A stretch of DNA of 64,000 bases from Deltaproteobacteria bacterium (GTDB taxonomy: Bacteria; Desulfobacterota; BSN033; UBA1163). Shown one piece after another: positions 2,987 through 55,137 of this stretch (its first letter is position 1; each line of letters starts with the position of its first letter). Under the pieces are notes generated by a model that saw only the letters and a program-made list of their open reading frames with translations, searched no databases and was not told the DNA's origin. The stretch is from the NCBI GenBank assembly GCA_020059605.1, contig JAGVBT010000044.1:42554-106553 (forward strand), read 5' to 3'. The translations under genes were made by a program, and so were the position numbers.

Positions 2987-3787
2987 TCAGACCTCTGTCA
3001 AGACGGACCGGACCCCTTTCTTCAGAAGTGTGATCCTTGGCATTCCCGAGATGGGATTTTCATCGACCCACACCCTGCAACCGTAAACCTTTTCGATATT
3101 TGCCCGGGTGATGACCTCGCGGGGTGATCCGATCTTAAAAATCGTTCCTCCCTGAAGAAGGATCAGCCGGTCACAATATTCGGAGGCGATGTTCAGGTCG
3201 TGGGACGCCATGGCGATCGTCAGTCCTTTTTCACGGTTGAGGTTCAGGATGAGTTCGAGAAAATCGACCTGGTGATGAATATCAAGGTTTGCCGTGGGTT
3301 CGTCCAGAAGAATCACCTCCGGTTCCTGGACCAGCGCCCTTGCGATAAAGACCCTCTTGCGCTCGCCCCCTGAAAGTTCATCAATCAATCTCTCGCCGAT
3401 CGGAAGGGTCTCCGTCCACTCCATCGCCTTTTTGGCAATTTCAAGATCCCTGGCCCCTTCGAACATAAGACGACCCAGGTGAGGCGATCTCCCCATCAGA
3501 ACCATTTCTATCACACGAAAGGGAAATAGGGAATAGGCTTCCTGGGGAACCACGGCGATCTTCCTTGCAATCTCTCCCTGGCTCATCTCCTTTAACGGAA
3601 CAAGGTCCAGGAGGATTTCTCCTTTTTGAGGAGTGAGGAGACGGCAAAGCGTTTTAAGAAGAGTGCTTTTACCGGATCCGTTGGGACCGATCACGCCGAT
3701 GAATTCCCCCTTCCGGATCTGGAAGGAGATCTCCCGGAGCACCCAGTCCTGTCGATAGCGGAAAGAGACGGAATGAAGATCGATCAC
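2987..3787 (-). CDS. btuD: ABC transporter ATP-binding protein (cobalamin/iron-siderophore type, BtuD/FepC-like)
   Basis: Walker A GPNGSGKST, the signature LSGGERKRV and Walker B ILLDEPT are present. The likely true start is GTG at 3785-3787, overlapping the permease stop (GTGA). The 80 N-terminal codons of the track ORF overlap the permease gene. It lies in the riboswitch-controlled operon. Confidence 0.8.
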   Translation of the reverse strand: MIDLHSVSFRYRQDWVLREISFQIRKGEFIGVIGPNGSGKSTLLKTLCRLLTPQKGEILLDLVPLKEMSQGEIARKIAVVPQEAYSLFPFRVIEMVLMGRSPHLGRLMFEGARDLEIAKKAMEWTETLPIGERLIDELSGGERKRVFIARALVQEPEVILLDEPTANLDIHHQVDFLELILNLNREKGLTIAMASHDLNIASEYCDRLILLQGGTIFKIGSPREVITRANIEKVYGCRVWVDENPISGMPRITLLKKGVRSVLTEV

Positions 3788-4815
3788 AGCGTCTTCACCA
3801 CCTTTCTCTTTCTCAGGAGGTAGATGAAGAAGGGGCCGCCAAAGGCCGCGGTGATCACACCCACGGGAAGCTCGACCGGCGCCAGGAGTGTCCTGGCAAG
3901 GGTGTCTGAGGCGATCAGAAAGGATGCGCCGATCAGGGCGGAAGCAGGCAGGAGAAGTCGGTGGTCCGGTCCGAAGAGGAGTCGAACCGAGTGAGGAATG
4001 ATCAGGCCCACGAAGCCGATCAGGCCGCACAGGGAGACCGAGGCCGCCGTCATCAGAGAAGCGGAGAGATAAGAGATGATCTTCAATCGCTCCACATCCA
4101 CGCCCAACTGCAGCGCGTTTTCTTCGCCCGAAAGAATCAGGTTCAGATGGCGTGATCTCCAGTAGAGCAGGAAAAAACCTGCCCCGATATAAGGAAGGAC
4201 GATGCCGATGGCCCGGGGATTTGCAAAACTGAAATTTCCCATCAGCCAGAAGAGGATCGTGTGGAGCTCCTCTTTCTGGGAGATCGAGAGTAAGAACATG
4301 ATGATGGCCGAGAGAAAGGACCCGGTGATGACCCCTGCGAGGAGCAGGACATTGGGATGAATCTTTCCTTCCTGTTTTCCGAAATAGAAGACCAGGGCAA
4401 TGGTGATGAGCGCGCCCGCAAACGAGGCCAGGGGGAGGCCAAAGGAGAGGGCGCTTAACCCCAGAAGGATGGCGATGATCGCACCCACGGCCGAGCCGCT
4501 GGAGACGCCGAGGATATAGGGATCGGCCAGGGGATTTCTCAGAAGGGCCTGAAACACAGCGCCCGAAACAGAGAGCCCGGCTCCAACCAACCCCGCCAGC
4601 AGGGCCCTCGGAAACCGGAGGGAGAGGATGATCGTCCTTTCCATCTCGGTCCCGGTCTCCGTCAGGCCCAGGAGCGACTGGACGAGGATAGAGACCGAAT
4701 GTTTGGGTTCAACTTTGACGCTCCCCACCATCACCGAGAAGAGAATGACCAACACCAGGAGAGCGGCAAGAAGAAAAGAGACGGTGATGACTTTTTTAAG
4801 AGTAAGGATCTTCAT
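3784..4815 (-). CDS. btuC: FecCD-family ABC permease (BtuC/FepD-like)
   Basis: 343 aa polytopic membrane protein. The conserved glycine-rich FecCD segments are present. Confidence 0.8.
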   Translation of the reverse strand: MKILTLKKVITVSFLLAALLVLVILFSVMVGSVKVEPKHSVSILVQSLLGLTETGTEMERTIILSLRFPRALLAGLVGAGLSVSGAVFQALLRNPLADPYILGVSSGSAVGAIIAILLGLSALSFGLPLASFAGALITIALVFYFGKQEGKIHPNVLLLAGVITGSFLSAIIMFLLSISQKEELHTILFWLMGNFSFANPRAIGIVLPYIGAGFFLLYWRSRHLNLILSGEENALQLGVDVERLKIISYLSASLMTAASVSLCGLIGFVGLIIPHSVRLLFGPDHRLLLPASALIGASFLIASDTLARTLLAPVELPVGVITAAFGGPFFIYLLRKRKVVKTL

Positions 4816-4886: not shown

Positions 4887-5867
4887 TTACATTGGTTTTT
4901 TAAATCGATCCGGGTGAATCAACCTTGCCATCTCCTCCAGTCCATTGATGATTCTCGGAGCGGGACGATCGATCAGGTCCGAATCGATCAGGTGAATCCT
5001 GCCATGCTTCACAGCCGGAATCGTCTTCCATCGTTTCCATTCCCGCAAGACCCTCTCGTAATCTCCTCCCGGGTTCATCGAACTGACGAGGATCACCTCC
5101 GGCGATCTCTTCAGAATCTCCTCCATTCCCAGCCGGGGATACATCTCTCGATCCTTTCCCGAAATATTTTCACCGCCTGCGAGCCGGATAAGATCGTCGG
5201 CAAAACTCCCCTTTCCGACCGTCACAATGGGCGCCTCTCCGATCTGGAGAAAGACTTTCGGGCGAGAAATGGACCGGATCTGATCGGCCACCCTCTCCCT
5301 CCGCCTCTTCATCTCCTCAATCATCGAGACAGCCTCCTTCTCCCGTGCAACGGCCTGGCCGAGGAGACGAATGCTCCGGAGAACGTCATCAAACCTCTTT
5401 GGAAAGATCACAAAGGTCGGAAACCCCAACCTCTCCAATCGTTCCACCATCTCCCGGGTATTTCCGGATCCCGTGGCAATCACCAGGTCGGGCTTCAGCG
5501 AGATAACCCGCTCATAGTCGATGTGAATATAGCTTCCCACCTTCACCCGGTTCTTCACCTTCTCGGGATAGTTGCAATGGATTGACACCCCCACAACCTC
5601 CTCATCAAGGCCCAGGCTGAAGAGGATTTCCGTGATATTGGGAGCCAGGGAGACAATCCGCCTCGGAGGATAAGGAAAGGTAACTTCCCTGCCCACTTCA
5701 TCCTTCAATGTGATGGCTGGGGAATATGAAACCGACGTGCAGGTGAGAATGAGTACTGAAAGCAGGGTCATTGCCGGCGCAAACAAACCGATCTTTTGGA
5801 GCGTATTGCCCCGGGGTTTCATCCCTTGCAATGACGTCTTCTTCATGCTCTTGATCCATGGAGACAT
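4887..5867 (-). CDS. btuF: Periplasmic cobalamin/Fe3+-siderophore binding protein (BtuF-like)
   Basis: There is a signal peptide, and the class III PBP pattern PRRIVSLAPNITEILFSLGL...VSIHCNYP is present. The start is ambiguous (M1, M8 or M16). Confidence 0.75.
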   Translation of the reverse strand: MSPWIKSMKKTSLQGMKPRGNTLQKIGLFAPAMTLLSVLILTCTSVSYSPAITLKDEVGREVTFPYPPRRIVSLAPNITEILFSLGLDEEVVGVSIHCNYPEKVKNRVKVGSYIHIDYERVISLKPDLVIATGSGNTREMVERLERLGFPTFVIFPKRFDDVLRSIRLLGQAVAREKEAVSMIEEMKRRRERVADQIRSISRPKVFLQIGEAPIVTVGKGSFADDLIRLAGGENISGKDREMYPRLGMEEILKRSPEVILVSSMNPGGDYERVLREWKRWKTIPAVKHGRIHLIDSDLIDRPAPRIINGLEEMARLIHPDRFKKPM

Positions 5868-5874
5868 GGGGATC

Positions 5875-6738
5875 TCACCGAAGCTGAAAGGTAACGGGGA
5901 TGTTCACCCAGACGAGGACCGGGGATTCATCCTTCTTCGCGGGGATAAACTTCCACTGTTTCACTGCCGAGATGGCGGAACGGTCCAGGATGTCATGGCC
6001 CGAGGAACGCCTTATCTCGATCTCTCCCACCCGGCCGCTTGAAAGCACTTCCACCCTCAACACGACCTCTCCTTCGTATCCCTTCTTCCTCGCCTCCCGG
6101 GGATAGAGGGGCTGGGGATTCTCGGCATACCGGGGTTGAGCAAAAACGATTTCATTTTTGTTGAAAGAAAGGTTTTTTGCCGCCGCCCCGGGTGGTTGGG
6201 GAGAACTGATTTGGGGAATGGATTGTGTGTCGTTTTCTGATAAGGACCGGGGCGACTCCCTGACAGAAGCGACCTTTGTTTCACTTGGAAGGAATGGAAC
6301 GGATAAAGGTTCTTCATCCCTTTCTTGTTTCTGGCTTGGTTTTGCAACTTCAACCCTCTCGACCTGGGTTGGTTTTCTCTCCTCTTCGGTTCGTACAGGC
6401 GCCGGATCTTCGATGATCGCCTCCCGTTTCTCGGCTGTTTGCAAGGGTTCTTTCTCTTTATTCGGCATGGCTGCAGGGAAAGGTTCCCACGGTTCTGACC
6501 GGTCCGATACCGGGATACCGTTCCCAACCGAACTCTGGACTTCCACCCTTCGGTTTAAGTTTCTCACTGGCTCTTTTTTTCCCACGGTTAGGGGGAGTAA
6601 GGACACCTTGATCGGATGGACCGGAACGGAGGAAAGCCTAGTGAGTGGGAAAAAGATGGAAAAAATGGAGAAGACCAGGACATGGCCCGCCAATGAGATG
6701 AATAAGAAGTGTTTCAGGTTCCGATCTCTGCTCATCAT
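5875..6738 (-). CDS. tonB: TonB-family energy transducer
   Basis: An N-terminal TM anchor, a Pro/Glu/Lys-rich spacer and the C-terminal TonB domain ...GYEGEVVLRVEVLSSGRVGEIEIRRSSGHDILDRSAISAVKQWKFIPAK are present. It is the first gene after the riboswitch. Confidence 0.8.
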   Translation of the reverse strand: MMSRDRNLKHFLFISLAGHVLVFSIFSIFFPLTRLSSVPVHPIKVSLLPLTVGKKEPVRNLNRRVEVQSSVGNGIPVSDRSEPWEPFPAAMPNKEKEPLQTAEKREAIIEDPAPVRTEEERKPTQVERVEVAKPSQKQERDEEPLSVPFLPSETKVASVRESPRSLSENDTQSIPQISSPQPPGAAAKNLSFNKNEIVFAQPRYAENPQPLYPREARKKGYEGEVVLRVEVLSSGRVGEIEIRRSSGHDILDRSAISAVKQWKFIPAKKDESPVLVWVNIPVTFQLR

Positions 6739-6790: not shown

Positions 6791-6834
6791 CAACATCACC
6801 CTTCACAGCCTTCCACCGAAGACCTGTTGTGAAG

Positions 6835-7020
6835 TGCGTTCAGGCAGGTTTTCTGGCTTACGGATCATCCTAATCCCTGCCCCTTCCCATCCTTCGACCC
6901 TTCGATAAACTCAGGGCTCAGGACAGTGGTTGCCGGCAGGTTTCGTCCCCGATTACAGCGGCGTGGCCGTCCCCGATTTCCACGGGGTTCCCTTATTCTG
7001 GCTTGGCGCCACCTGAACGC
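6835..7020 (-). promoter_or_regulatory. Cobalamin (B12) riboswitch aptamer
   Basis: The minus-strand RNA reads GCGUUCAGGUGGCGCCAAGCCAGAAUAAGGGAACCCCGUGGAAAUCGGGGACGGCCACGCCGCUGUAAUCGGGG...CCACUGUCCUG...GGGAAGGGGCAGGG...AGCCAGAAAACCUGCCUGAACGC. This carries the conserved GGUG, AAGGGAA, GUGGAAAUC, CCGCUGUAA, CCACUG, GGGAAGG and B12-box GCCAGnnnACCUGCC elements. A 9-bp P1 stem (GCGUUCAGG/CCUGAACGC) closes the aptamer. Confidence 0.9.
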
Positions 7021-7155
7021 AGATCAATTGTTTATAAATTACCATAATATTCGGCTTAATGTCAAATTTATTGAGTTTACATTTAGCCTAAAATATTGTA
7101 GAAGGAAGATAATTGCAGGTTTTTTAGGGATGGCTTCACGGGAGAAGGAGGGCAT

Positions 7156-11465: not shown

Positions 11466-14126
11466 ATGTCTTCCCACCCCCGACTCTTTCTTATCGATGG
11501 TTCTTCTTACATCTACCGGGCCTTTTACGCCATACGACACCTCTCGAATTCAAAGGGTTTTCCAACCAATGCCATTTATGGCTTCACCCAGATGCTGCTC
11601 AAGGTGCTCAAAGACCATCGGCCCGAGTATCTTGCGGTTGTCTTCGATTCGAAGGCCCCCACCTTCCGGAGCGAGGCCTATCAGGCTTATAAGGCGAACC
11701 GGCCCACCATGCCGGAGGGATTGATTCCCCAGATTCCTTATATCAAGAAAATCGTCGAAGGTTATCGCATTGCCACGTTGGAGATGGATGGATACGAAGC
11801 AGATGATATCATCGGAACCGTAGCAAAAGGGTTGGAGTCGGAAGCCGATGTGGTGGTCATCACCGGAGACAAGGACATCCTTCAGCTGGTGGGCGAGCGG
11901 ATCCGGGTTTATGATACGATGAAAGAGAAATGGATGGGGCCGGAGGAGGTGAAGGAGCGCTTTGGTGTGACACCCGAACAGGTGGTGGAAGTGATGGGTC
12001 TGGCCGGAGATGCCATCGACAATATTCCTGGCGTCCCTGGAATTGGAGAGAAAACGGCGATTGAATTGATTAAAAAATTCGGATCGATCGAGAACCTCCT
12101 CAACCGTTTAGACGAGGTTCCCCAGGAGAAGTTAAAAGAGAAGCTGAAAAGTCACAAGGATCTGGCGCGGCTGAGCCGGCGGTTAGCGACGATCCGGATC
12201 GATGTCCCCATCGTCTACCGGAAAGAGGATTTCGTCCTCTCTTCTCCGGACCCGGGAGGCCTCAGGGGACTCTTTAAAGAATTGGAGTTCCATAAACTTC
12301 TCAGGGAATTTTCTGAAGAATCTCCGGAAGGAAAGCCGGACCGGGATTATCGTCTGATCATGGACCGGGATGTGTTCCTTTCATTGCTGCAAGACCTGAA
12401 GGAATCGAAATGCTTTGCCATCGATATCGAGACCACCTCCCTCTATCCGATGTGGGCCAAACCCGTTGGAATCAGCCTCTCCCATGCACCCCATCAAGCC
12501 TTCTATATCCCCGTCGGCCACATGAATGCCGGGCAACTCCCCCTCGACTGGGTACTGGAACAATTAAAGCCGCTTCTGGATGAGGAAGGGGTGAAAAAGG
12601 CCGGGCAAAACATCAAATATGACTGGATCGTCCTTAAACGCCTCGGTATCGACGTACGAGGGATTCTCTGCGATACGATGATTGCCTCCTACCTTCTCAA
12701 CCCCACAAAACACAACCATAACCTCGGTGAGATTGCCCGCGAGTACCTGGACCGGGAAGTGACCGAATACAAGGAAGTGGTGGGCGGAAAGGAAATGACC
12801 TTTGATCAAGTCGATCTTGACAGGGCGAGGGATTACAGTTGTGAAGATGCAGATGTAACCCTCCAGCTCTCCCATCTCCTCCTCCCGAAGTTGAAGGAAG
12901 GAGGGTTTGAAGAACTTTTCGGCAGGGTGGAGATGCCTCTTGCCGTTGTCCTGGCTAAGATGGAGATGAACGGTGTAAAGATCGACATCGATTTTCTAAG
13001 GGGATTTTCTAAGGAGATTGAAGGACAGCTCCTTGGGAAAATGGACCGGATCTACGGGCTCGCAGGGGAAGCCTTCAATATCAACTCTTCCCGGCAGCTG
13101 GGAAAGATCCTCTTTGATAAATTCAACCTGCCTGTGATCAAAAAAACCAAGACAGGAGTCTCGACCGATGTGGAAGTTCTCGAAAAACTTTCCCTTCATC
13201 ATGATCTTCCCCTCGAGATCCTGGGATATCGTAATCTCTCCAAACTCAAATCGACCTACATCGATGCCTTGCCCAAATTGGTTCATCCTGAAACAGGTCG
13301 TGTCCATACTTCCTACAATCAGACGGTCACGGCGACGGGAAGGCTCTCTTCCAGCGATCCGAATCTTCAGAATATCCCCATCCGCACAGAGGAAGGAAAC
13401 CGTATCCGTCAGGCCTTTATCCCTGAGAAGGGATACGTGATCGTCTCGGCGGATTACTCTCAGATTGAGTTGAGGATTCTCGCCCACCTTTCCAGGGATG
13501 AAGTGCTGGTTGAGGCCTTTGAAAAGAATGAAGACATTCATAGCCGGACGGCCTCTGAGATCTTCGGGGTTTCGATGGAAAAGGTGACCCCTGGCATGAG
13601 AAGGGAGGCCAAGGTGATCAACTTCGGCATCATCTACGGAATGAGCGCCTATGGCCTCTCCCAGCAGTTGAAAATAGAACCCAAAATCGCACAGGCCTAC
13701 ATCGACCAATACTTTCAAAAATATACCGGAGTTCAAACCTATATCCGGACAAGCCTCGAGGAAGCCAGGAAGAAAGGTTTTGTCATAACCCTTCTCAATC
13801 GGAGGCGTTACCTGCCCGAGATCAATTCTCCAACGGCCACCATCCGGCAGGCTTCCGAAAGGATGGCCATCAACACCCCCCTCCAGGGAACAGCCGCAGA
13901 TATGATCAAAGTGGCGATGATCCGGATACAGACCCGGCTGGAAAACCTTCATCTTTCAACGAAGATGATCATGCAGGTTCACGACGAACTGGTCTTTGAA
14001 GTCCCCGAAGGAGAGATCGAAAATGCTCTCCCGATGATTCGGACGGAGATGGAGGCGGTGATGGAACTGCTCGTTCCTCTCAAAGTTTCAATCAGTAGAG
14101 GCAACAATTGGGCCGAAGCCCACTAA
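11466..14126 (+). CDS. polA: DNA polymerase I
   Basis: 886 aa with the 5'-3' exonuclease N-terminus (LIDGSSYIYRAFYA), a 3'-5' exonuclease domain and the polymerase motifs RRxAKxINFGxxYG and QVHDELV. Confidence 0.95.
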   Translation: MSSHPRLFLIDGSSYIYRAFYAIRHLSNSKGFPTNAIYGFTQMLLKVLKDHRPEYLAVVFDSKAPTFRSEAYQAYKANRPTMPEGLIPQIPYIKKIVEGYRIATLEMDGYEADDIIGTVAKGLESEADVVVITGDKDILQLVGERIRVYDTMKEKWMGPEEVKERFGVTPEQVVEVMGLAGDAIDNIPGVPGIGEKTAIELIKKFGSIENLLNRLDEVPQEKLKEKLKSHKDLARLSRRLATIRIDVPIVYRKEDFVLSSPDPGGLRGLFKELEFHKLLREFSEESPEGKPDRDYRLIMDRDVFLSLLQDLKESKCFAIDIETTSLYPMWAKPVGISLSHAPHQAFYIPVGHMNAGQLPLDWVLEQLKPLLDEEGVKKAGQNIKYDWIVLKRLGIDVRGILCDTMIASYLLNPTKHNHNLGEIAREYLDREVTEYKEVVGGKEMTFDQVDLDRARDYSCEDADVTLQLSHLLLPKLKEGGFEELFGRVEMPLAVVLAKMEMNGVKIDIDFLRGFSKEIEGQLLGKMDRIYGLAGEAFNINSSRQLGKILFDKFNLPVIKKTKTGVSTDVEVLEKLSLHHDLPLEILGYRNLSKLKSTYIDALPKLVHPETGRVHTSYNQTVTATGRLSSSDPNLQNIPIRTEEGNRIRQAFIPEKGYVIVSADYSQIELRILAHLSRDEVLVEAFEKNEDIHSRTASEIFGVSMEKVTPGMRREAKVINFGIIYGMSAYGLSQQLKIEPKIAQAYIDQYFQKYTGVQTYIRTSLEEARKKGFVITLLNRRRYLPEINSPTATIRQASERMAINTPLQGTAADMIKVAMIRIQTRLENLHLSTKMIMQVHDELVFEVPEGEIENALPMIRTEMEAVMELLVPLKVSISRGNNWAEAH

Positions 14127-14776
14127 CCCCCTGTTAGGAGTAATGAGTTCGGAGTGAGGTTTTCATTAATGTCCTGGTCTGAAAAGATAAGGCTTTCTTC
14201 AACTGACTCCCTTGTTTCACCCGGGCCTCCCAGCAATAAAAATCCAAATCGCTTGATCCCCTGGCCGGATAAGACATCTGAAATTTGCCGCACCTCTTCC
14301 AGGGTAAATCTTTTGTTCATCTCCGTTAGGATTTGTTCAGACCCGCTTTCAAACCCGATGCTTGCTTGCTCGCATCCGGCTCTGGCCATCCATTCCGCAA
14401 GCTTTTCATCGATCTGCCTGGGGTAAAGGATGCCCCACCACTTAATGTCAAGGTCTTCTTTGACGAGTTTCCGACAGATTTCTTCGGCATAAGAGGGTGG
14501 GAGGTTGAAGGTATTGTCGACGAAGTAGAACCGATCAACCCCGGCCTTACGCCAACGAGCGATCCACTCGACCATCGTCTCCGGGGAATGTCTCCGTAAC
14601 TTCCGCCCTTCAATCGTCTTCATGAGAATAGACGGTCCATCTTTTTCAGCCATCAAATCTACGACGGCCACGTCATGGCCAGCCTTTTGAGTCGAAGCGG
14701 CCACACATGCCAGGCCCAGGGGCAGGGTGGGCATATTGATCTTTTCCGTGTTAGCAGAAAGGAGTAAGACTTTCAT
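14123..14776 (-). pseudogene. B12-binding radical SAM homolog, internally deleted and C-terminally truncated remnant
   Basis: The N-terminus MKVLLLSANTEKINMPTLPLGLACVAASTQKAGHDVAVVDL is the start of a B12-binding domain. The C-terminal half (VDRFYFVDNTFN...AGCEQASIGFESGSEQILTEMNKRFT...GGPGETRESVEES) matches the radical SAM core. The roughly 170 aa between them, including the CxxxCxxC cluster motif, are absent, and the protein is only 217 aa. It converges on polA with a 4 nt overlap. Confidence 0.45.
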
Positions 14777-14877: not shown

Positions 14878-15507
14878 CTAATAGGGGAGCTTTCGTTTCT
14901 TCAGGCCACACTTTGTTAGGAATTGTTCGAAAGCTTCGTAGGGCTGGAACCCGACAATTTCTCGCCGATCAATCAAAAATGTGGGCACCCCGGTAATCCC
15001 GAGTTCACGAGAACGGGACCAATCGGTATCGACCGCCTCCTTGAAGGTTCTCGATTCAAGGGCCGATCTTGCTCCCTTTTCTGGGAGGCCGATTCCACTG
15101 GCAAGCCTCACCAGTTCATCTATCTTGCCGATATTTCTTCCCTCGACAAAATAAGCGTGAAACATGGCCTCATGGAATGGATCGCCTTTCTGCTCCGATT
15201 CCGCCCATTTTGCCAACTCCTGAGCAAGACGGCTGTTGTAGGTCCGTTTCCGCTCGCCGAGAGGAAGGCCCACTTCATCCGCTGTCTTCCGTAACCGGAT
15301 AAGGAGTTTATTGATGTCTACGGAGCGTCCGGCAAAGAGTTCCTCAAGGCTGAGCCCTTCTTCAGGTGTTTCCGGATGAAGAGGAAAAGCCTTCCAGCGG
15401 ACCTCAATTTCGTAATTCTTCCGTAATTGATCAATACGCACGGTACTGAAATAACACCAGGGTCAGACATAATCGGAAAATACTTCAAGGATTGCTGCTT
15501 CAGTCAT
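14878..15507 (-). CDS. FrnE/DsbA-like thiol-disulfide oxidoreductase with an in-frame TGA (candidate selenocysteine) in the redox motif: U-P-W-C
   Basis: The track ORF starts at GTG 15441. The frame continues upstream through TGA (complement 15463..15465) to ATG at 15505-15507, giving MTEAAILEVFSDYV[TGA]PWCYFSTVRIDQL.... This is the canonical FrnE N-terminus, with TGA at the position of the first Cys of CPWC. A hairpin CCGUGCGUAUUGAUCAAUUACGG lies about 20 nt 3' of the UGA. Confidence 0.6.
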
Positions 15508-15857
15508 AAGTCCCTCCGGTCTGCATTCAAATGCTTCTCAATCTGTTACATGTGAGGGGACGTTGGTTCAAATACAACTTATCAATTTTTAAAGGCCATG
15601 GGATCAATCAATCCTAATAGAGTGCTTTCCGGGGGAGTTAGTTTTTCACTCAATCTTGAATTCTTTTGCTTCTGTTCCAATTACCCCCCGGAAGTTGACC
15701 TCTTTATACCAAAAATTTAATTTTATGGCAATTTTTGATGCGGGAAGACAAAGAAAAGATCAGCATCATGGGGAGGTGGGAAGAGAGGCAGATCTCAACC
15801 GGTAACGTCTGGCTCAAACCGAAGGAATGGTTCGGAGTGAACAATGAAAAATCAAAT

Positions 15858-15890
15858 CTCCGAACTCCGGACTAATTACTCCGAACTTTT
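15858..15890. repeat. CTCCGAACT-word repeat cluster
   Basis: CTCCGAACTCCGGACTAATTACTCCGAACTTTT overlaps the stop codon of the GHL-domain gene. It shares its word with the 8176 tandem repeat and with an inverted copy at 14137-14160. Confidence 0.6.
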
Positions 15891-22400: not shown

Positions 22401-25400
22401 TTATTTGAGTTTAAAATCAACGCGGCTATCTTTCAGCTTTTCCTTCTTTGCCGGTGTAAGAGATTTTGGTTCAAGGATGAATATTCTCTCGGGTTCAACC
22501 GGCCCGGATGTTACGATGGCCTCCTTGACTTTCATGGCCCGCTGGGAAGCGAGGGCCCGCAGGTCACTCTCCCTGATCTCCAAATGCGTCAGAATCAACT
22601 TTTCCATTTCCGGGGCGGGGATGTCTTTGGCTATTCCCAGAATATTTCTCGGTTTTGGAAATTTCTCTTCCTTATAGGCCATCTTCAAATATTTTTCGTA
22701 TTCCTGTTTTTCGATTTTCACCTCATCCACTGGAATAGGAGGCTGTCCTTTCTTGACCATCTCTTTCAGTTTCTGGGCCTTCAATTTTCTGTCGAATAAA
22801 TACTGTTTCAACCATTCCCTGTCTTTCTCCGGATCCACATAACCCTCAATATCCATCTTGAGTTGAGGTCGATTGAGCAGAGCCTTTGCTATGGTCTCAA
22901 GTTTTTTAACACTCGGCTCGGTGAGGGTGGCGCTTCCGTATTCAAACTCCACGAAACTCAGTTCTTCTCCTCCTCCGATGATCGCCCCGAGGAGTGAAAA
23001 GGGCGAGGTGGCGGCCTTCGCTATCAGATTGATGAGGATCTTCAGGATGATTCCCCAAACGCTGAATTTCGGGTCATCCAGGCTTCCGGTGACCGGGATG
23101 TCCAGTTTGATTTCTCCTTTTCGATCCTTCAAAAGGGAGATGGCAAGTTTGACAGGCAACTTGGTCGCATGAGGGCTTTCCACCTTCTCTCCCAGGTTGA
23201 ACTGGTCAATGAAGATTTGATTCTGGGATTCGAGCTTTCTCTGTTTGATCAAATATTTCAAGTCGAATGAGAGCTTTCCCTTCTCGACGGTGTACCCGAC
23301 ATATTTCCCCGCATAAGGGGTCGTCGGACTGAGTTCCATATCCTTAAATCTCGCTTTCAGATCCACATAAAGGTCTTCTTTCAACGGATTGATCTTGCCG
23401 GTAATTTCGAGAGGGGCATAATCATCGAGTTTTGCACGAAGCTCCAAATCCGCCAGAGTGGTTTCCTCGGAAGAAAGACCGGAGATTCGTCCCCCGATCT
23501 CGGTCAGCTTTGCCGAATAATCGGGTTGAATGGATCGGTCTGAGAAGTCAACCCTCCCTCCCTGCAGGGTGATTGTTTCAATCTTGATCGTACTGGGGGG
23601 GTCTGCTGTTTTCTTCCCGGGCGAAGAAGGGGGGGCGCTTTCTTTGGAGGGACGTGTTTCTTGTTTTTTTTCTTCTTTCCCGATGAGTTGCTGGACATTG
23701 AGCAGGCCGTCCGGGTGGATGATCACTTGGGCATAGAAATCGCTTAATGAAATTCCTTTGATGTCCAATAAAAATGGATCGGAGTCGAAACGGAGATCAT
23801 CCAATGCCAGGGATTCCACTTTCAGGAAATCGGTGGCATGCTGTTTGTCAATGGAAGCAAAATGGGTCAGGGAGGCTTTCCCACGGTAGGTGGACTTAAG
23901 CTCTTTTTTATCTGAAAATTCCAGAGCAAGATTACCGTTGGTCGAAACGGCGCCACCGGTGACGTTCACCTTCACTCTGTCCGTAAAGTAGGCCTGAAGG
24001 GGCTTGATGCCAATCTCTTTCAAGCTCACTTTCAAATTTGCGGAGAGAGGGTTGATTCCGACCGCTCCCTCAGTTGAAATCGTGCCCTTTTGGTTGAACC
24101 GGAAGGAAAGGGCGGCATTTCCCTTTTGGCCTTTGGCTGTTGAGAAACGTTCGGCTCTTAGCCGCAATTCATCCATCACCAGCGCCACCGGCTCGGCGGG
24201 GGTTAGATCTTCACCGTTGATCGTATAATCATCCACTGAAACCTTTCCCACTTTGATCAGCCATGGTTTTTTTTCCGTTTTCTCCTGTACGGGTGCGAGC
24301 TTTTCCGCTGTTTTTTCTTCCTTTTTTTCACTTTCTGGGAAAAGGGACTGGAGGTTGATTTTCCCATCTTTAAAGCGACGGACGGAGAGTGTCCCTTTTT
24401 GAGTTGAAACATCCCCGACAGCAACCTCTTTTTGATTCAGATCCAATCCGGTGTTGTTGATCGTCAGCAGGGGAATATCCGCGAAGGCTTCCTCTTCATC
24501 CCTTTTTTTTAATTTCAAGCCTTTGAATGAGGCCGAAAGACCCGAGAGCTTGGTGATAATGTCTTTCCCTGTTTTTCGGTATTGATAGTTGGTAAAAAAG
24601 TCGAGGTCTCCCCCATCGATATTGAAGAGGATGCTATCCTGATAGTAAGGGGCGTATTTATTTAAGACGATACGTTTGATCTCTAAGGAGCCTTCGATTC
24701 TCAAAGGGTCAAGGCCAATCGTGTTTTGGGTGGAAAGGACGCTTGTCTGGTCCAGCAGGAATGAAAGGGATAATTTCCCAAGGGCATTTTGGGCAGTGGA
24801 TATATTTTCACCCTTGAGGGTAATCTTTTCTCCGATCAGGACAGTGGGTTGTTGGGGGGCTTGGTCTCTCATGTTGACTGCATATTGATCAACGGAGATT
24901 TTTCTCAGGGCCACCACCCATTTTTTTTCTTCTCCCTTCCCTTTGCTCTGCACAGGAGACGATTTCTCAGGGGGAGAAGGAGGGAAGAGCTTCATCAAAT
25001 CGAGGTCCCCGTTTTTTAAGCGGGTTAAGGTCAGCACCCCCTTTTCCGTTGAGAAGGTCCCGATCGTCACTTGTGTCTGGGTCACATCCACGAGGGTATC
25101 TTTGACCGAAAGAAGAGGTATTTTAAGGAAATCTTCTTTTTCCTCCGGCCTTTTAAGCCTTAAGGAATTCAAAAGGACGGACATTGCCGACAAAGAAATT
25201 TCAGGTTCTTTCTCTCCCCTGGCATATTTGTAACGGGTTGAGAAGTCCAAGCGACCTTCCTCAAGGGTAAAAAGAATTTGATCCTGATAATAGGGTGAAT
25301 ATTTCATCAGAGGGATAGACCTGATCTCCAAATTGCCCTCTGCCCACAAAGGCTCTACGGAAAGCTCGCCCTCCACTTTGATATTTTCCTTGGCCTCAGA

Positions 25401-26645
25401 CGCAATGGAAAGGGAATAGTTAGTTTTTTTGCCTTTGCCGTTGCTGAAAGGAGCAACCCTTAATTCAATGGGGGCCAGGGTCGTCTTAAAAGGTTTCTTT
25501 GTTGACAAATCCGAAAATGAGACCTTTCCGCCAATCAACTGCACCTCATCAATATCAAGGGATAGGGTGGCCTGATCTTCCTTTTTTTCGGCCGCGGGGG
25601 GAGGCTGGGTTTCTTTCTTTTTAGGGAGTAACGATTCAATGTTCAAAGCTCCTTCCGGATTTCGCCTTACGTTAAGTTCGGGAGACTGAAGGGAGACCCT
25701 TGACAGATGAAAGACCATCTTGAGGGGTTCTGTCGGGGCAATTTCGATTTCAAGCAGAGGAAGCCTGAATAAAGGATTTTTCTTACCATCGTCCAGTGCC
25801 ACTTTTTTCAAGGAGACATTTCCTGTCATAGTCAAGGTAGGCTGTTCCTCTTTAGGCTGGATAAACGAAACCTTTGTCTGGACATCAAGAAAGGCGGAGA
25901 CGATCTTGAAATTTAATTTAACAGGAAGGTAGGCCAGGTAATGGGGGATATCCAGGTTCTGAATATGGATGTCAAAAACTGTCTCGAGGGTGTCGCGAAA
26001 AGGTTTTGTATTCCCTTCAAGCCGATAAGGGGTTTCGTTAATCTTGGCGAAAAAGGTGGGTTGAACAAAGATGTCAATATGAGAGGGAATATTGGATAAG
26101 AAAGGAACCCCGATATTCAACTCTTTTACAGTATGCTTGGTCTGTTTGGGACCATCCCAAAAATCGATGCTTCCGCTTTCGATAATGATGTTATTAAGGG
26201 AGAACCGGAGAGGTTTTGGTTTTTCCGTCGGCTTCTCCGGCGGGTGGGTCTCCTTTTTTTCGAGCAGGTCATCAAAATTATAGGACCCGTCTTCATCGCG
26301 ATGGATTCTGATGTAAGGCTGTTTTAACCTGATCTCTTTAAGAATGAGCGCCATTCTCAGGGCGGAAAGGCTCTGGAGGTTTAAGAAAAGCTCATCGAAG
26401 GATAAAAAAGGTTCCGGACGTCCGTGGTCCTTCACCTGAAATCCTCTGATGGTTAAAGAAAGGGTATAGGGGTTTGCCTTGATTTGAGTGATCGCCACCT
26501 CGCGATGGAGGTTTTCCGAAAGTTTCTTGGTCAAGATCGATTTGAGAATTGGGGGAAGGATCAAAAAACCGAAGAGGGTATAGACCGCTAAAGAAATGAT
26601 GACCCAGACGATCGTCTTTTTCAACCGTTTCATATATCCCCCCAC
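22401..26645 (-). CDS. DUF748/AsmA-like giant envelope protein (1414 aa)
   Basis: An N-terminal TM anchor, a long beta-rich body and an internal duplication (...[27 protein letters not shown]... versus ...[27 protein letters not shown]...) are typical of the AsmA/TamB-like lipid-transfer superfamily. Confidence 0.6.
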
Positions 26646-42475: not shown

Positions 42476-45400
42476 TCACAAAGGCTGAGCCAATACTTTC
42501 TCGTACTTCTCGACCCAGCCGTCGGCGCCGCATTCTTTGAGAATCTCTATGGCCTTGCCGAGATTCTCCTGGGCTTTTAATCTATCCCCTTTTCGTTTAA
42601 ACAACTCTGCATAAAGAGCATAATCATTTCCCAGGTGGAACATCGTTCGATTTCTCTGATCGGCTTCAATGGCCTTCTGAATCCAATACTCTGCTTCAGA
42701 TAAGTGCTGGTCATCAATGTTAAGCAGAATCTCTCCGATAAGTCTTTGCATCCCACCTTCGGCTGCCTTTACTTTATTGTTTCGTGAATGCACATACAAA
42801 GATTCCAAATCCACACCCTTTTCTTTATTCATCACTTTCGATCTTGCTATAGCAACTCTTCCCCACCCCACCCAGGAAGGCCATAAACGATTGCGCTCGA
42901 AAGCCGAAATCCCTTTTTCGAAACGTTCTTTAGAGCCCTGGAAATTTCCCATTTCAAAATAGGTATCTCCCAGGTGATATTGGTTTCCCGCATCCCAGCC
43001 AGAAATATTAATCTTTTCACAAAATTCGAACCCCTTCAGCAGGTATTTTTCAGCTTCTTCAAGCAATCCTTTCCCATAGCAGGAAGTTCCGTGACTTGAA
43101 TATGCTATTGCCTTTGAATAAATATCACCGCTCTCTTCAGCAATCTGGAGGCCTTCATTCGAAGTCTTGAATTGCAGATCTATTCTCCCATGGTACCAAT
43201 GAGAAAAATAGGCCAAATTACTCATCGTTACCGCAATGCCCCAAAAATTTTTTGCTGCCACATTAATATCAATAGCTCTTTGTGAAAATTTAATTGCTCT
43301 TTCAAATTCGCAGTTCGCCCCTAAAGCATATCCAAACCAGCTACTTGCTAAAACTAAACTAACAATATCTTTTATCTCTTCCGATATTTTTAGGGCTTCC
43401 TCAAATGCTTTAAATGCCTCTGGATAATTTTCTTCTCCAGACCAATAGTATGTTCCGAGAATCATGTATATGTGAGAAAGTCTCCTTTTATAATCACGTT
43501 TGATGGCCAAATCAATAATTGGATCTATGGCTTCTTTGGCCTCAACAAAATGGTTCATTTGAGCGATATAAAGTCCAAGAACCGTCCTGGCATCGACAAT
43601 CTGTTTTTCAATATTCGCTGCCTGGGTTAATCGCTCAAGAGATGCTATTCTCGTCTTTGCATAAGCAATCGCATCATTAAACGAAGCTGTCTTCTCGGCC
43701 CTCCTGCTTGCCAACCTCGAATACTCAGCGCATTTTGAATAATTCTCACTCAAGAGGTAGTGTCCGGATAATACTTCATAACATTCACTTAAATTATCCT
43801 TGTAAAGTTCCTCGATATTGTTCCCAATCTCCTCATGAAGTTTCTTCTTCCTTTTGGCCAAGATGGAATTATAAACCACCTCACGAGTTAAAGCGTGTTT
43901 GAAGACATAATTCGATTGAGGGTATATGCCTCTTTCATAAAGAAGTTCTGAGTCTTTAAGGATAGAAAGGTAAGAGAGCAGGTCTTTTTCTGGGAGGCCC
44001 ATAATGCGGTTTATCAATGGATAACTAAACTCTCTCTCAATGACAGACCCGCTTTGGAGCACCTCTTTTGCCCTCTCAGGTAAGGAATCTACTCTTGCCA
44101 TAATCACATCCTGGAGTGTTAAAGGAATGGTCAGCTCATGGATATCTTTTGATAAACGAAATTTGTTATCTTCTCTCTCTATGATTCTTAATTCTCTCAG
44201 GGACTGTATAAACTCTTCAATGAAAAAAGGGACTCCTTCTGTCTTCTCCAGGATCAATTCCTCAAGTGATTTTTCAATCTCTTTTGTCCCTAAAATATGG
44301 GTTGCCATCTCAAGGCTCTCCCTATTCGAGAGCCGATGCAACGTTAATTGATTGTGATAAGACTTTGCGCCCCAGGTGTGTAAAAACTCAGGCCGGTAGG
44401 TAAATATTAATAACACCCTTGCTCCCGGGATGCTCTCCAAATTGTTTCTTAATACGTCCTCTGAACTCTTATCCAGCCAGTGCAGGTCTTCAAATGCCAT
44501 CACCAGAGGCCGTATCTCAGACCCTCTAAGAATGATCCGTTTTATTGATTCAATAATCCTATCTTTCTTTGATTCAGGGCTCATGGAAATCTGTTCGATC
44601 CCACTATCCTTGACTGAGAGAAGCTCAAGGAGATATGGGAGAGTCGAGGCTTCATCGACTCCTATTAATCTCAACCCTCTTGTGACTTTTTCTTTGATTT
44701 CCTGGTCCCCTTCTCCTTCATGAATATCGAAGTTTGACTTCAGGATGTCTATCACCGGGTGATAAGCTACCCCCCTGCTGTAGGAGAGGCATTTCCCTTC
44801 CAAAAAGGTTACATTTTCGTTGACTATTGCCTTCCTGAATTCATACAAAAGCCTCGATTTACCACAACCGGCCTCAGATACAATAGAAAACGCCTGGCCC
44901 TTTCCTGATTTGGCTCTCGTAAATCCATCGAGCAGAAGCTCAAGCTCACGTTCCCTTCCAACAAAGGGAGTCAGCCCGCGCTCAGCACTGACATCAAATC
45001 TTGTCCTTCTCGTGCTGGGAGCGATCACCTGAAAAACCTTTATGGGTTCTTCCTTGCCCTTAACATTTTTTTTCCCCAAAGCCTCAAACCTAAAAAACCC
45101 CTCCGTGAGTTTGAAGGTATCTTCGGTCACATAGGTTGTTCCTGGTTCTGCCAAGCCTTCCATTCGGGATGATAGATTCACCGTATCTCCAACCGCCTTG
45201 AACTCAACCCGAAGATCATTACCCAAGCTACCCACCACCACAGGACCTGTGTGAATACCAATACGCATCTTAATTGGCGTTATTCTGCTTTCGATTTTGA
45301 GCTGATCGCTGAACTTGCTCATCTCCCGATGGATGGTTAATGCAGATCGAATTGCACGCTGTGGAGCGTCCTCCAGAGCAATCGGCGCCCCAAAAAGAGC

Positions 45401-45844
45401 CACAATCCCATCACCGGTTAATTCGTTGACAGTCCCTTCATAATCATGGACCTTGTGGATGAGGATTTCGTAAACCTGATCCATCATGGAGTAAGCTTCC
45501 TCAGGACCGAGCTTTTCGGTAAGTCCCGTATACCCCTCCATGTCACAGAACATCACCGTGACCTGTTTGCGTTCACCTTCAATTCGGTCGCGTTGAGATA
45601 AGATTTTTTCGGTTAGACCCCCGGGAAGGTATTTTTGAATCTTGGCTATCTTCTCATCAAAGGAAAGTTCTCTGGTGAGCGGTTTTGAAGGAAGGGTTAA
45701 GTCGTGGCCACACTCACCACAGAATTTGAATTGAGGAGGGTTTGAAGAATTGCAATGGGGACAGATCTTTTCTAATTTGGCACCACACTCCCCACAAAAC
45801 TTCAAGTTTTCGGGATTTTCAGTCTGACATTTTGGGCATTTCAC
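42476..45844 (-). CDS. Multidomain signalling protein: double zinc ribbon, class III adenylate/guanylate cyclase, STAND-type AAA ATPase and TPR repeats
   Basis: The N-terminal CPKCQ...CGECG / CPHCN...CGECG is a double zinc ribbon. The cyclase core has [10 protein letters not shown]...[11 protein letters not shown]...[10 protein letters not shown]. The Walker A is [11 protein letters not shown]. The C-terminal roughly 450 aa are TPR-like. The gene is AT-rich. Confidence 0.8.
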
Positions 45845-52106: not shown

Positions 52107-52157
52107 TTGTCATTTGGCATTGACATCTGTCAGATCAATCAGGGACAAGAGGAGAGG

Positions 52158-53903
52158 ATGTCCAAACAATTCCAATTCAAGAGTGTTTCTGAGATGCCCA
52201 TGATCTCTGTTTCGCTGGGGGATATGGAATGGAACAAAACGGGGGCATGGAGAACGCAGCGCCCTTTTTATGAAGATAAGACCCCTCCGTGCAGTGCGGC
52301 CTGTCCGGCAGGAAATGATATCGTTGCATTCATCCAAAAAATTGCAAAGGGAGATTTTGAGGGAGCCTGGAATATCATCAAGGAGGAGAACCCCTTTCCA
52401 GGAGTCTGCGGCAGAGTCTGTTTTCATCCCTGCGAGTCAAAATGTAACCGGGGATCCTTCGATGAACCCATTGCGATTCATGCTCTGGAGAGGTTTGTAG
52501 CGGGCTTTGGTTCCCGCCTGAGCAAGAACACCGGAAAGTCCGGAGAGAAAAGGAAGGAGAAGGTTGCCATTATCGGCTCCGGGCCAGCCGGGATGAGCTG
52601 CGCCTATCATCTTGCAAGGCTCCATCACGATGTGACGGTCTTCGAATCCTTACCCCTTGCAGGCGGCATGCTCAGGATGGGCATTCCCTCCTACCGGTTG
52701 CCCAGGGAGGTCCTGGACAGAGAACTCTCAGGGATTGAAGCCCTGGGAGTAAAAATCCAAACAGGGGTTGCTCTGGGGGAGGATGTAAGGTTAGAGGACT
52801 TGAAGAACTATCGGGCCATCTTCATCAGCACAGGGGCTCACCGGAGCAGAGGTCTTCAGATTCCAGGAGAAAAAGAGAAGGGTATCCTGGGTGGTCTTGA
52901 TCTGCTGAAGAGGATGAACCTGGGCAAAAGAATGAAGCTGGGCGACAAGATTGCCATCATCGGCGGGGGAAATACGGCGATCGATGTGGCCCGGTCAGTG
53001 ATCCGGCTCGGTAAAAAAGCAACGATTCTCTATCGTCGTTCAAGGGAGGAGATGCCGGCCTTTGCAGAAGAGATTACGGAGGCTCTCGAAGAGGGGGTAA
53101 AGATCAGATATCTGGTCAATCCCATCCGCCTTCAACAGAAAGATGGTCTTAAACGATTGGAGTGCCTCCGCATGGAGCTGGGGGAGCAGGATGAGAGTGG
53201 CCGGAGAAAGCCGGTTCCCATCCCCAATTCCAATCTCCGCATCGATGTGGATCATGTGATCGTTGCGGCAGGAGAGGAGATCGAAGCCTCCTTTCTTCCG
53301 GAGGGGTTGGAGAAGAAAGAGGGGATCGTTCTCACCCGGAGAGACGCAAGCACCGGCATCAAAGGGGTCTTTGCCGGAGGAGATCTCACCTCCACCCAGC
53401 GAACTGTAGCCCATGCCATTGGTTCGGGCAAGAAAGCTGCAATGGCGATCGATGCCTTCCTGGAGGGGAAGGATACGGAAGAGGCGATTGTTCAACATCT
53501 GGTAGGAGAGGGCCCATCCCTCTCCATCTTTAGATATCTCCATCCGGGGGAGAGGCCCAGGAATCCTCATATCGTACCTTTTGAAGAATTGAATATGGAC
53601 TACTTCGAACTTGCGAAAAGACAGGAAGAATCGAAAAGGAGGGTGAAGGAGAGAATCAGGGACTTCAATGAGGTCACCTCCACCCTTACCGAGGACGCTG
53701 TCCTCGAGGAGGCCGGGCGGTGTTTCGGTTGCGGGACCTGTAATGAATGTGAGAATTGTTATGTCTTCTGCCCCGATGTCTCCATCTTAAAGTCAGGGGG
53801 AATCCTCTCCCATCAGGTCGATTATGATTATTGTAAGGGCTGTGGCATCTGTTTCACCGAATGTCCTCGGGGCGCCATCTCTCTAAAAGAGGAGGCTAAA
53901 TGA
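52158..53903 (+). CDS. GltD/SudA-like NAD(P)H-dependent FAD oxidoreductase fused to a C-terminal PorD-type 2x[4Fe-4S] ferredoxin domain
   Basis: The N-terminal Cys cluster region is CSAACPAGNDI...CGRVCFHPCESKCNRG. The FAD/NAD GxGxxG motifs (IIGSGPAG, IIGGGNTA) are present. The C-terminal CFGCGTCNECENCYVFCPD...CKGCGICFTECP is PorD-like. It sits in the slot where a delta subunit normally lies. Confidence 0.7.
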   Translation: MSKQFQFKSVSEMPMISVSLGDMEWNKTGAWRTQRPFYEDKTPPCSAACPAGNDIVAFIQKIAKGDFEGAWNIIKEENPFPGVCGRVCFHPCESKCNRGSFDEPIAIHALERFVAGFGSRLSKNTGKSGEKRKEKVAIIGSGPAGMSCAYHLARLHHDVTVFESLPLAGGMLRMGIPSYRLPREVLDRELSGIEALGVKIQTGVALGEDVRLEDLKNYRAIFISTGAHRSRGLQIPGEKEKGILGGLDLLKRMNLGKRMKLGDKIAIIGGGNTAIDVARSVIRLGKKATILYRRSREEMPAFAEEITEALEEGVKIRYLVNPIRLQQKDGLKRLECLRMELGEQDESGRRKPVPIPNSNLRIDVDHVIVAAGEEIEASFLPEGLEKKEGIVLTRRDASTGIKGVFAGGDLTSTQRTVAHAIGSGKKAAMAIDAFLEGKDTEEAIVQHLVGEGPSLSIFRYLHPGERPRNPHIVPFEELNMDYFELAKRQEESKRRVKERIRDFNEVTSTLTEDAVLEEAGRCFGCGTCNECENCYVFCPDVSILKSGGILSHQVDYDYCKGCGICFTECPRGAISLKEEAK

Positions 53904-55054
53904 AGAGGGTCATCACAGGAAACCAGGCAGTGGCCTACGGCGTCATCTTGAGCCGTGTGGATGTCATCTCCGCATACCCCATCACACCCCAGACGACGAT
54001 TGTGGAAGAGCTTTCAGAACTGATTGCAAGCGGCCGCCTGAAGACAAAATTCCTGAAGGTAGAATCAGAACATTCCGCCATGGCCGCACTGATCGGAGCC
54101 TCCACCGGAGGGGTTAGAACCTTTACGGCTACATCCTCTCATGGATTAGCCTATATGCATGAGATGCTCCACTGGGCTTCCGGAGCGAGGCTTCCCATTG
54201 TTCTGGTCAATGTCAATCGGGCCCTTGGCGCACCTTGGAATATATGGGGCGATCAGAGTGATTCTCTCTCCCAGCGGGATACGGGATGGATTCAACTCTA
54301 TTGCGAAAATAATCAGGAGGTCCTCGATACCATTGTTCAGGCTTATCTGATCGCAGAAACGGTGAGACTTCCTGTGATGGTTGTCCTCGATGCTTTTGTC
54401 CTTTCCCACACCGCTGAGGCTGTTGAAATTCCAAGCATCGAGGAGGTGGACTCCATCTTGCCGCCTTTCTGTCCGGATTATCCGATCGACACCCAGGAAC
54501 CGAGAGCCTATTCCGTGATCACCACCCCTGATTATTTTTTGGAGTTTCGTTACAAGGTCCAGAAGGCCATGGAGCAGGTCCCAGAGGTTGCCAAGAAGGT
54601 GGATGATGAATTCAAAGCCCGGTTTGGCCGGGGTTATGGAGCGATTGAAAGATATGGAAAAGAAGGGGCCAAAGTGTTGTTGATGACCTCTGGAACGGTC
54701 ACCAGCACGTCAAGAACAGTGATCAAGAAGCTGGTGGAGAAAGGTTTAAGCGTTGCCGGAATCAAGATCAAACGGTTCAGACCCTTTCCCTCCGAAGAGA
54801 TTTGCGAAGCGATTCAGGGGGCAAAGAAGATCGCTGTCATCGACCGGAACCTTTCTGCCGGAGTGGGTGGCATCTTTGCACAGGAGTTAAGAGCCTCTTT
54901 GTATTCTCGGGAGGAGAGGCCTCCTGTCTTCGGATTCGTTTCCGGATTGGGTGGACGAGATATTACTCCGGAACTGATCGAAGAAGCGATTCAATATACA
55001 ATGGAGCACCCTCAGCCCGAAGGAGATATTGTGTGGCTAGGACTGAAAAGATAA
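53900..55054 (+). CDS. 2-oxoacid:ferredoxin oxidoreductase, alpha subunit
   Basis: 384 aa with the PorA/VorA-like domains I and II. It overlaps the upstream stop by 4 nt. Confidence 0.85.
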   Translation: MKRVITGNQAVAYGVILSRVDVISAYPITPQTTIVEELSELIASGRLKTKFLKVESEHSAMAALIGASTGGVRTFTATSSHGLAYMHEMLHWASGARLPIVLVNVNRALGAPWNIWGDQSDSLSQRDTGWIQLYCENNQEVLDTIVQAYLIAETVRLPVMVVLDAFVLSHTAEAVEIPSIEEVDSILPPFCPDYPIDTQEPRAYSVITTPDYFLEFRYKVQKAMEQVPEVAKKVDDEFKARFGRGYGAIERYGKEGAKVLLMTSGTVTSTSRTVIKKLVEKGLSVAGIKIKRFRPFPSEEICEAIQGAKKIAVIDRNLSAGVGGIFAQELRASLYSREERPPVFGFVSGLGGRDITPELIEEAIQYTMEHPQPEGDIVWLGLKR

Positions 55055-55059
55055 ATTTC

Positions 55060-55125
55060 TAAATTCGAATTTCGAAATTGTTTCGAGTTTCGATATTCGG
55101 ATTTCGGATTTTAGAGATCCCAAAA
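55060..55125. repeat. AT-rich TTTCGA/TTCGGA word repeats including the perfect palindrome AATTTCGAAATT
   Basis: TTCTAAATTCGAATTTCGAAATTGTTTCGAGTTTCGATATTCGGATTTCGGATTTTAGAG lies between the alpha and beta subunit genes. Confidence 0.8.
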
Positions 55126-55137
55126 AATGAGGCTTAG

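Follow-up and report, generated by a model that had tools for sequence, protein, structure and literature searches.

A FrnE-like thiol-disulfide oxidoreductase gene with an in-frame UGA, probably decoded as selenocysteine, in a deltaproteobacterial metagenome contig

A stretch of 64,000 nucleotides from a deltaproteobacterial contig (JAGVBT010000044.1; hereafter the window, meaning the whole stretch at its full length) carries an open reading frame (ORF), called mechanically at 14878..15441, that encodes 187 amino acids and starts at an internal GTG. Upstream of that GTG, in the same frame, lies what reads as the N terminus of a FrnE-type oxidoreductase, interrupted by a TGA exactly where the first redox cysteine is expected. 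The question raised by this locus is whether the UGA is a genuine stop, an error or a decoded codon and, if decoded, as which amino acid. The initial annotation, made from the sequence alone, favored recoding to selenocysteine (Sec) over a chance nonsense mutation, and the comparative evidence below supports that choice. We give a probability of approximately 0.92 to the reading in which 14878..15507 encodes a cytoplasmic DsbA-family thiol-disulfide oxidoreductase belonging to the FrnE branch, with Sec inserted at the UGA (15465..15463) and a hairpin at +17..+35 (counted from the U of the UGA) serving as the SECIS element.

The complete frame comprises 209 codons including Sec and runs along the minus strand from an ATG at 15507..15505 to a TAG at 14880..14878. 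In translation it reads MTEAAILEVFSDYV, then the TGA at 15465..15463, then PWCYFSTVRIDQL and onward, with the TGA as the sole interruption. The frame proposed in the initial annotation, ATG through TGA to PWCYFSTV with the TGA on the first redox Cys, is therefore confirmed by translation, and equally by the Pfam match and the FrnE alignment described below. Its start codon is present as proposed, but position 15505, given for the ATG, is only the last base of that codon. The features of the gene are as follows.

14878..15507, minus strand: coding sequence of the predicted FrnE/DsbA-like selenoprotein, identified by translation, by a Pfam DSBA match over residues 7–197 and as a relative of Deinococcus radiodurans FrnE.
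15513..15517, minus strand: Shine-Dalgarno sequence GGAGG, 5 nt 5′ of the ATG at 15507, read from the sequence.
15463..15465, minus strand: in-frame TGA, predicted Sec residue 15 and first position of the U-P-W-C redox motif, placed by orthologues, the FrnE alignment and Cys homologues.
15454..15456, minus strand: TGT encoding Cys18, the second (resolving) residue of U-P-W-C, which is Cys in 80/80 sequences.

With Cys set at the TGA, the translation matches Pfam DSBA (PF01323) from residue 7 to 197 against profile positions 2–190 of 191 (E = 8.9e-36; 123.9 bits against a cut-off of 25.6). A match of this strength, running straight through the TGA, is far beyond chance, and, because it begins at residue 7, the 14 codons 5′ of the TGA form part of the domain. 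The redox motif occupies residues 15–18, preceded only by the first β-strand (ILEVFSD), and this leaves no room for a signal peptide; the product is therefore predicted to be cytoplasmic. Apart from Cys18, no cysteine is conserved in the 80 sequences. The start is an ATG in 78/80 orthologous sequences and lies exactly 14 codons ahead of the TGA in 67 of these 80, and an SD-like motif precedes the start in 75/80. The tryptic peptide that spans the UGA would be TEAAILEVFSDYV-X-PWCYFSTVR, where X is U in the selenoprotein reading. A promoter scan of the minus strand found no σ70 consensus upstream of the gene, and the only feature that it detected was a terminator-like site at 15871..15859, after the preceding gene.

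Conservation of the TGA was assessed in the DNA of 80 relatives taken from species-representative genomes, with 54–77% identity to the window gene, 79 of which reach the TGA site. The lineages sampled were Thermodesulfobacteriota (including “delta proteobacterium” metagenome-assembled genomes [MAGs]), Syntrophorhabdales, Syntrophaceae, Desulfobacteraceae, Nitrospiraceae, Dissulfurispiraceae and Ca. Abyssobacteria. These 79 loci each represent a different species, and every one has TGA at the same codon; TGC or TGT occurs in none of them (0/79, relatives with at least 54% identity). Three further metagenome loci (L081–L083) have the same TGA. On the 5′ side of the TGA, the peptide LE[IV]FSDY[VI] is preserved across the 80-sequence alignment while third codon positions vary freely, which indicates that this stretch is translated in this frame.

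Cysteine versions of the protein lie somewhat further away. The initial annotation had recommended an alignment search for Cys orthologues, and homologues with CPWC were indeed recovered at 35–51% identity (P0127, with SDIACPWCYF; P0129; P0131; P0134; P0141; and others); TGC or TGT also occupies the site in 77 FrnE-type metagenome loci. The three additional TGA loci (L081:643, L082 and L083; WNFL01326185.1, Ga0137435_1008638 and Ga0316628_100118012) make up a second Sec subclade with the local sequence FSDFV-U-PWCYLVTGRVEKL. Their nearest relative is the Cys form P0127, at 46–49% identity, so Sec and Cys forms are interleaved at approximately 50% identity.

Bacterial Sec insertion calls for a SECIS element in the mRNA, and the initial annotation had pointed to a hairpin about 20 nt downstream of the UGA. 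The hairpin it named, CCGUGCGUAUUGAUCAAUUACGG (+23..+45, CCGU/ACGG), is not conserved: it is 43% paired in the orthologues, no better than slid controls, and was rejected. A hairpin that overlaps it is conserved.

15431..15449, minus strand: SECIS-like hairpin, +17..+35 from the U of the UGA, identified by pairing and covariation in orthologues.

This hairpin has a 7-bp stem (UCAGUAC/GUAUUGA) and a 5-nt loop (CGUGC, 15442..15438). The distance from the UGA is 20 nt to the loop and 13 nt to the stem, the latter near the 11-nt spacing of the minimal SECIS of E. coli fdhF. Across the orthologues it is 93% paired, compared with 16%–53% for slid controls; both sides change in 4/7 of its pairs, its covariation score was reached by 0/500 shuffles, and RNAalifold independently predicts the same helix. 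The composition of four pairs among the orthologues is as follows.

Pair 19–33: AU 64, GC 9, GU 2, UG 1.
Pair 21–31: UA 71, CG 5.
Pair 23–29: CG 75, UA 1.
Pair 20–32: GU 31, GC 7, UG 2, unpaired 36.

The weak point of the stem is pair 20–32, where about half of the orthologues have a U·U mismatch. Some of the covariation couples a first codon position that changes the amino acid with a third position that is synonymous, as where [A/G]NU at a Ser/Ile/Gly/Ala/Val codon pairs with AU[U/C] at an Ile codon. Mean third-codon-position entropy is 0.36 bits within the hairpin versus 1.38 bits outside it, and positions +18 and +30 are invariant (80/80). The second loop position, G25, is also invariant, followed by G in 47 sequences and U in 33. 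The called GTG start (15441..15439) is G25-U26-G27 and thus sits within the apical loop of this hairpin.

The published bSECIS model specifies a loop of 3–9 nt, a stem of 4–16 bp, a UGA-to-loop distance of 16–37 nt, a minimum free energy (MFE) of −7.5 kcal/mol or lower and a G among the first two loop nucleotides, as a rule with G or U after it; not every genuine bSECIS element passes this model (PMC13188914). In geometry (loop, stem, loop G and spacing), the +17..+35 hairpin agrees with this model. It also resembles the bacterial prototype from E. coli fdhF as an in-ORF stem-loop just 3′ of the UGA, with a 5-nt loop, a 7-bp stem and a loop G followed by G or U. It differs in being less stable than the cut-off, quite apart from the mismatch in about half of the orthologues: folded alone, the window hairpin has −5.7 kcal/mol, against a median of −5.6, and 11/80 sequences reach −7.5, a value published with no statement of the span folded. 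The longer segment +1..+63 has an MFE of −10.7, in a fold that takes in an unrelated helix, and the fold of ±35 nt around the UGA in the single sequence (z = −0.13) is uninformative by itself. No Rfam SECIS family matched 15300..15560 even at E ≤ 10, where the only hits were chance snoRNA-type matches.

The pairing follows the TGA. In Cys-form loci, an average of 3.8 of the 7 pairs are in register and position +30 varies freely (1.68 bits), in a control set that is not peptide-matched: it consists mostly of distant FrnE types (SDIACPWCYIGKRR) from a metagenome scan with P0127, and the downstream peptide differs in all of them. The second Sec subclade also has another local peptide (U-PWCYLVTGRVE), and there 6/7 hairpin pairs are in register; in L081, the only locus of the three read base by base, two pairs are compensatory (A-U to G-C and U-A to C-G). 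From these comparisons, the +17..+35 hairpin is judged to be SECIS-like and specific to the TGA forms, with neither the pairing nor the frozen synonymous sites present in the Cys forms. Sec decoding is thus supported by three lines of evidence together: a strictly conserved TGA with coding sequence on both sides, Cys homologues and a covarying hairpin found only with the TGA.

A second hairpin in the same region is nearly as well paired.

15439..15461, minus strand: competing hairpin, +5..+11 with +21..+27, 92% paired.

Six of its seven pairs are dictated by the codons for Pro-Trp-Cys and Thr-Val/Gly, and the one pair that covaries is open in 23 sequences, among them that of the window. It shares bases with the +17..+35 hairpin, and the two are mutually exclusive. 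It also abuts the UGA and departs from the bSECIS model in both spacing and loop G. As the mRNA channel of the ribosome is understood, this hairpin would be unable to form with the UGA in the A site. The competing hairpin could be functional or could be a mere by-product of the P-W-C and T-G/V codons. We considered that the two exclusive hairpins might form a structural switch that sets the balance between Sec insertion and termination according to, say, the selenium supply or the spacing of ribosomes; this idea is speculative and we think it improbable. If it were true, the weak, mismatch-bearing SECIS would be deliberately tunable and not just degenerate.

Among the alternatives to Sec, the one that survives best is that the UGA is recoded as something else, either by genome-wide reassignment (to Trp or Gly, as in codes 4 and 25) or by near-cognate suppression that inserts Trp or Cys. 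It draws some support from the databases. A search over 5.8 billion proteins was carried out, and the best 120 relatives (P0001–P0120; 64–100% identity) were examined; the three that are annotated as full length, P0010, P0014 and P0103, read FSDY[VI]-W-PWCYF, with Trp at the site. This Trp is the TGA as translated by a gene caller, and, given the chemistry of the thioredoxin fold, a CXXC enzyme would lose its activity if Trp replaced its nucleophilic Cys. Reassignment is also contradicted by TGA usage: TGA is the stop codon of 19/49 long ORFs in the window and of 33/80 of the orthologous genes themselves. A single mRNA then contains one UGA that is read and another that terminates; this excludes reassignment of the code and makes the recoding site specific. 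Suppression would have no need of a conserved hairpin with a G[G/U] loop at the published SECIS distance, which Sec insertion does need, and the lineages concerned are those reported to be richest in selenoproteins (PMC13188914). We therefore regard non-Sec recoding as very unlikely.

The remaining point in favor of non-Sec recoding is that no Sec machinery was observed in the 64-kb window. As the initial annotation had stated, selA, selB and selD are missing from this stretch, in agreement with Pfam scans of its suitably sized ORFs, and the window contains no tRNA at all. The search for tRNA-Sec in 60 related loci was likewise negative, and a screen of the window for long frames broken by just one TGA returned no other convincing selenoprotein gene. 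Absence of the machinery from the genome would nevertheless be hard to explain alongside a conserved TGA and a predicted covarying SECIS in more than 80 genomes.

The next alternative takes the UGA as a true stop, so that the locus would encode a 14-residue leader peptide and a separate 187-residue DsbA fragment from the GTG at 15441. This is the model that gene callers give for 117 of the best 120 database relatives, which are N-terminally truncated (approximately 182–199 aa, with approximately 88% query coverage), begin at an internal start and lack the redox motif; the hairpin, moreover, could in principle serve translational coupling. The model fails, however, at the start codon itself: the position of the window's GTG reads GGG in 47/80 orthologues, and, because GGG cannot initiate, the called internal start is not conserved. 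Within the seven codons between the TGA and this GTG, P-W-C-Y is invariant, and both the Pfam domain and the FrnE alignment continue through the TGA. The truncated product would lack the first β-strand and the whole redox motif, and the Shine-Dalgarno sequence sits ahead of the upstream ATG. On this evidence, termination at the UGA is highly improbable.

The third alternative, that TGC or TGT became TGA by chance in a dead gene or through an assembly or sequencing error in a true Cys gene, can appeal to the single base that separates these codons and to the metagenomic origin of the contig, but it is effectively refuted by TGA in 79/79 independent species-level assemblies and three metagenome contigs, by the lack of TGC or TGT in any relative of at least 54% identity, and by purifying selection on the peptide on either side of the TGA together with the covarying hairpin 3′ of it.

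Sec decoding at the conserved UGA thus being the preferred reading, we compared the gene with known selenoproteins. The initial annotation had noted that DsbA/FrnE-like selenoproteins are known in Deltaproteobacteria, and the literature bears this out (PMC1794560; PMC1088965). A “DsbA-like protein” family of selenoproteins (COG2761, UXXC) was first recognized by Zhang, Fomenko and Gladyshev in 2005 in data from the Sargasso Sea (PMC1088965), and DsbA-like selenoproteins were reported in Anaeromyxobacter dehalogenans, Desulfovibrio desulfuricans and Desulfotomaculum reducens by Zhang et al. in 2006 (PMC1794560). A review of 2026 lists a “DsbA-like protein form 1, PF01323, UxxC” (PMC13188914). 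The window gene shares with form 1 the Pfam family, the UxxC motif with Sec for the first Cys and an in-ORF SECIS just 3′ of the UGA; in both cases Cys homologues are widespread and the hosts include anaerobic Deltaproteobacteria. We see no fundamental difference between them, in a comparison based on the described features of the published family, of which AACY01178397 and NIP15863.1 are examples. The window clade, FSDY[VI]-U-PWCYF, was sampled here from MAGs of Thermodesulfobacteriota, Nitrospirota and Ca. Abyssobacteria that derive from soil, sediment and groundwater, whereas the original papers dealt with marine and cultured genomes. The gene is accordingly a further member of the DsbA-like selenoprotein family published since 2005, ordinary except for its routine mis-annotation.

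FrnE proteins are cytoplasmic oxidoreductases of the DsbA family with a CP(W/F)C motif (PMC8945050). The best PDB matches of the window protein are FrnE and SCO1869, and the best solved relative is D. radiodurans FrnE (drFrnE; DR_0659; PDB: 5cnw, 5cp1 and 5e59; cd03024), which aligns over residues 6–189 with E = 1.3e-25. The C-P-W-C of drFrnE, with Cys22, aligns exactly with U-P-W-C, placing the TGA on the first Cys. With the motif starting at residue 22 in drFrnE and at residue 15 in the window protein, neither has room for a signal peptide. drFrnE isomerizes disulfides and reduces insulin, and its mutant shows sensitivity to cadmium and to diamide; the active site of drFrnE is regenerated by a C-terminal CXXXXC tail, a feature that many FrnE proteins have but some lack (PMC8945050). 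The window protein, in contrast, is approximately 50 residues shorter, ends at residue 209 and does not have this tail, and its only C-terminal cysteine, C200, is found in 14/80 orthologues. With no CXXXXC tail and only U15 and C18 conserved, re-reduction must differ from that of drFrnE; a tail-less regeneration route has been proposed for FrnE of S. roseofulvus and D. maricopensis.

Similarity to periplasmic DsbA of the E. coli type is more general and consists of the thioredoxin fold with a helical insertion, a CXXC-type motif and the Pfam family. E. coli-type DsbA has PH within the motif where the window protein has PW, and the window protein has no signal peptide. The DsbA chains 4pwp and 4pwo match only its C-terminal half (E around 1e-6), and no DsbB-like partner was found among the neighboring domains of the gene or its orthologous loci. 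Membership in the Rcas_1661 family of thioredoxin-like (seleno)lipoproteins (NF041057) was rejected: the match is confined to the C-terminal 88 residues and scores 39 bits, where the cut-off is 190. This was the sole NCBIfam match, and no NCBIfam model captures the family.

If the preferred reading is correct, the active site would be Sec15-Pro-Trp-Cys18. The hairpin at 15449..15431 would recruit SelB-GTP-Sec-tRNA(Sec) to a ribosome with the UGA in its A site, where delivery of Sec would compete with release factor 2. The enzyme would then cycle between a selenol/thiol and a selenenylsulfide (U15-C18) state and could reduce or isomerize disulfides of cytoplasmic substrates, as Cys-type FrnE does. 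SelB binding, the incorporation of selenium, a Sec machinery in this genome and the kind of physiological substrate are inferred.

The genes nearby encode a radical-SAM fragment, a TPR/GHL13 protein, RadA, FabH and PolA. None of these window neighbors recurs beside the gene in other species. In the set of 80 loci there is no recurrent neighbor either, and the one neighbor cluster of any size is an antisense ORF over the gene itself; the context therefore gives no functional clue. The radical-SAM relative (14123..14776, minus strand; 217 aa) lies 101 nt downstream of the selenoprotein gene, in the same orientation, and its 3′ end overlaps the stop of the convergent polA by 4 nt. Its Pfam match begins at profile position 22, and its translation contains no CxxxCxxC, which suggests that a short N-terminal stretch is joined straight to the post-cluster radical-SAM core in an internally deleted or degenerate gene.

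Elsewhere in the window, a cobalamin riboswitch (6826..7031, minus strand; 101.9 bits) was the sole Rfam match at the gathering threshold. The minus-strand cluster 3′ of it (ORFs 5875..6738, 4887..5867 and 2987..4030) encodes a TonB C-terminal domain protein, a Peripla_BP_2 (BtuF-like) periplasmic binding protein and an ABC ATPase and probably forms an uptake operon under B12 control. BtuF figures among the listed selenoprotein families (PMC13188914), but the single-TGA ORF screen found no in-frame TGA in the window copy. On the plus strand, 52107..56016 encodes a 598-aa protein with Fer4_20, Pyr_redox_2 and Fer4 domains that resembles NfnB or the small subunit of glutamate synthase, and after it the POR_N/PFOR_II and TPP_enzyme_C subunits of a predicted 2-oxoacid:ferredoxin oxidoreductase. 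These genes show no in-frame TGA, and such a set fits an anaerobic lifestyle. Two very long ORFs are also present on the minus strand, at 22401..26645 (1414 aa) and 42476..45844 (1122 aa).

These results change no concept, and their practical value lies in annotation. The true product would be a 209-residue selenoenzyme and not the 187-residue database protein without a redox centre, and the same error affects essentially the whole clade. The 80-sequence alignment defines a covariation-supported SECIS for this clade and could seed a covariance model with which such genes would be recovered automatically. For the organism itself, the gene would be one more marker of selenium use in an uncultured representative of the Thermodesulfobacteriota.
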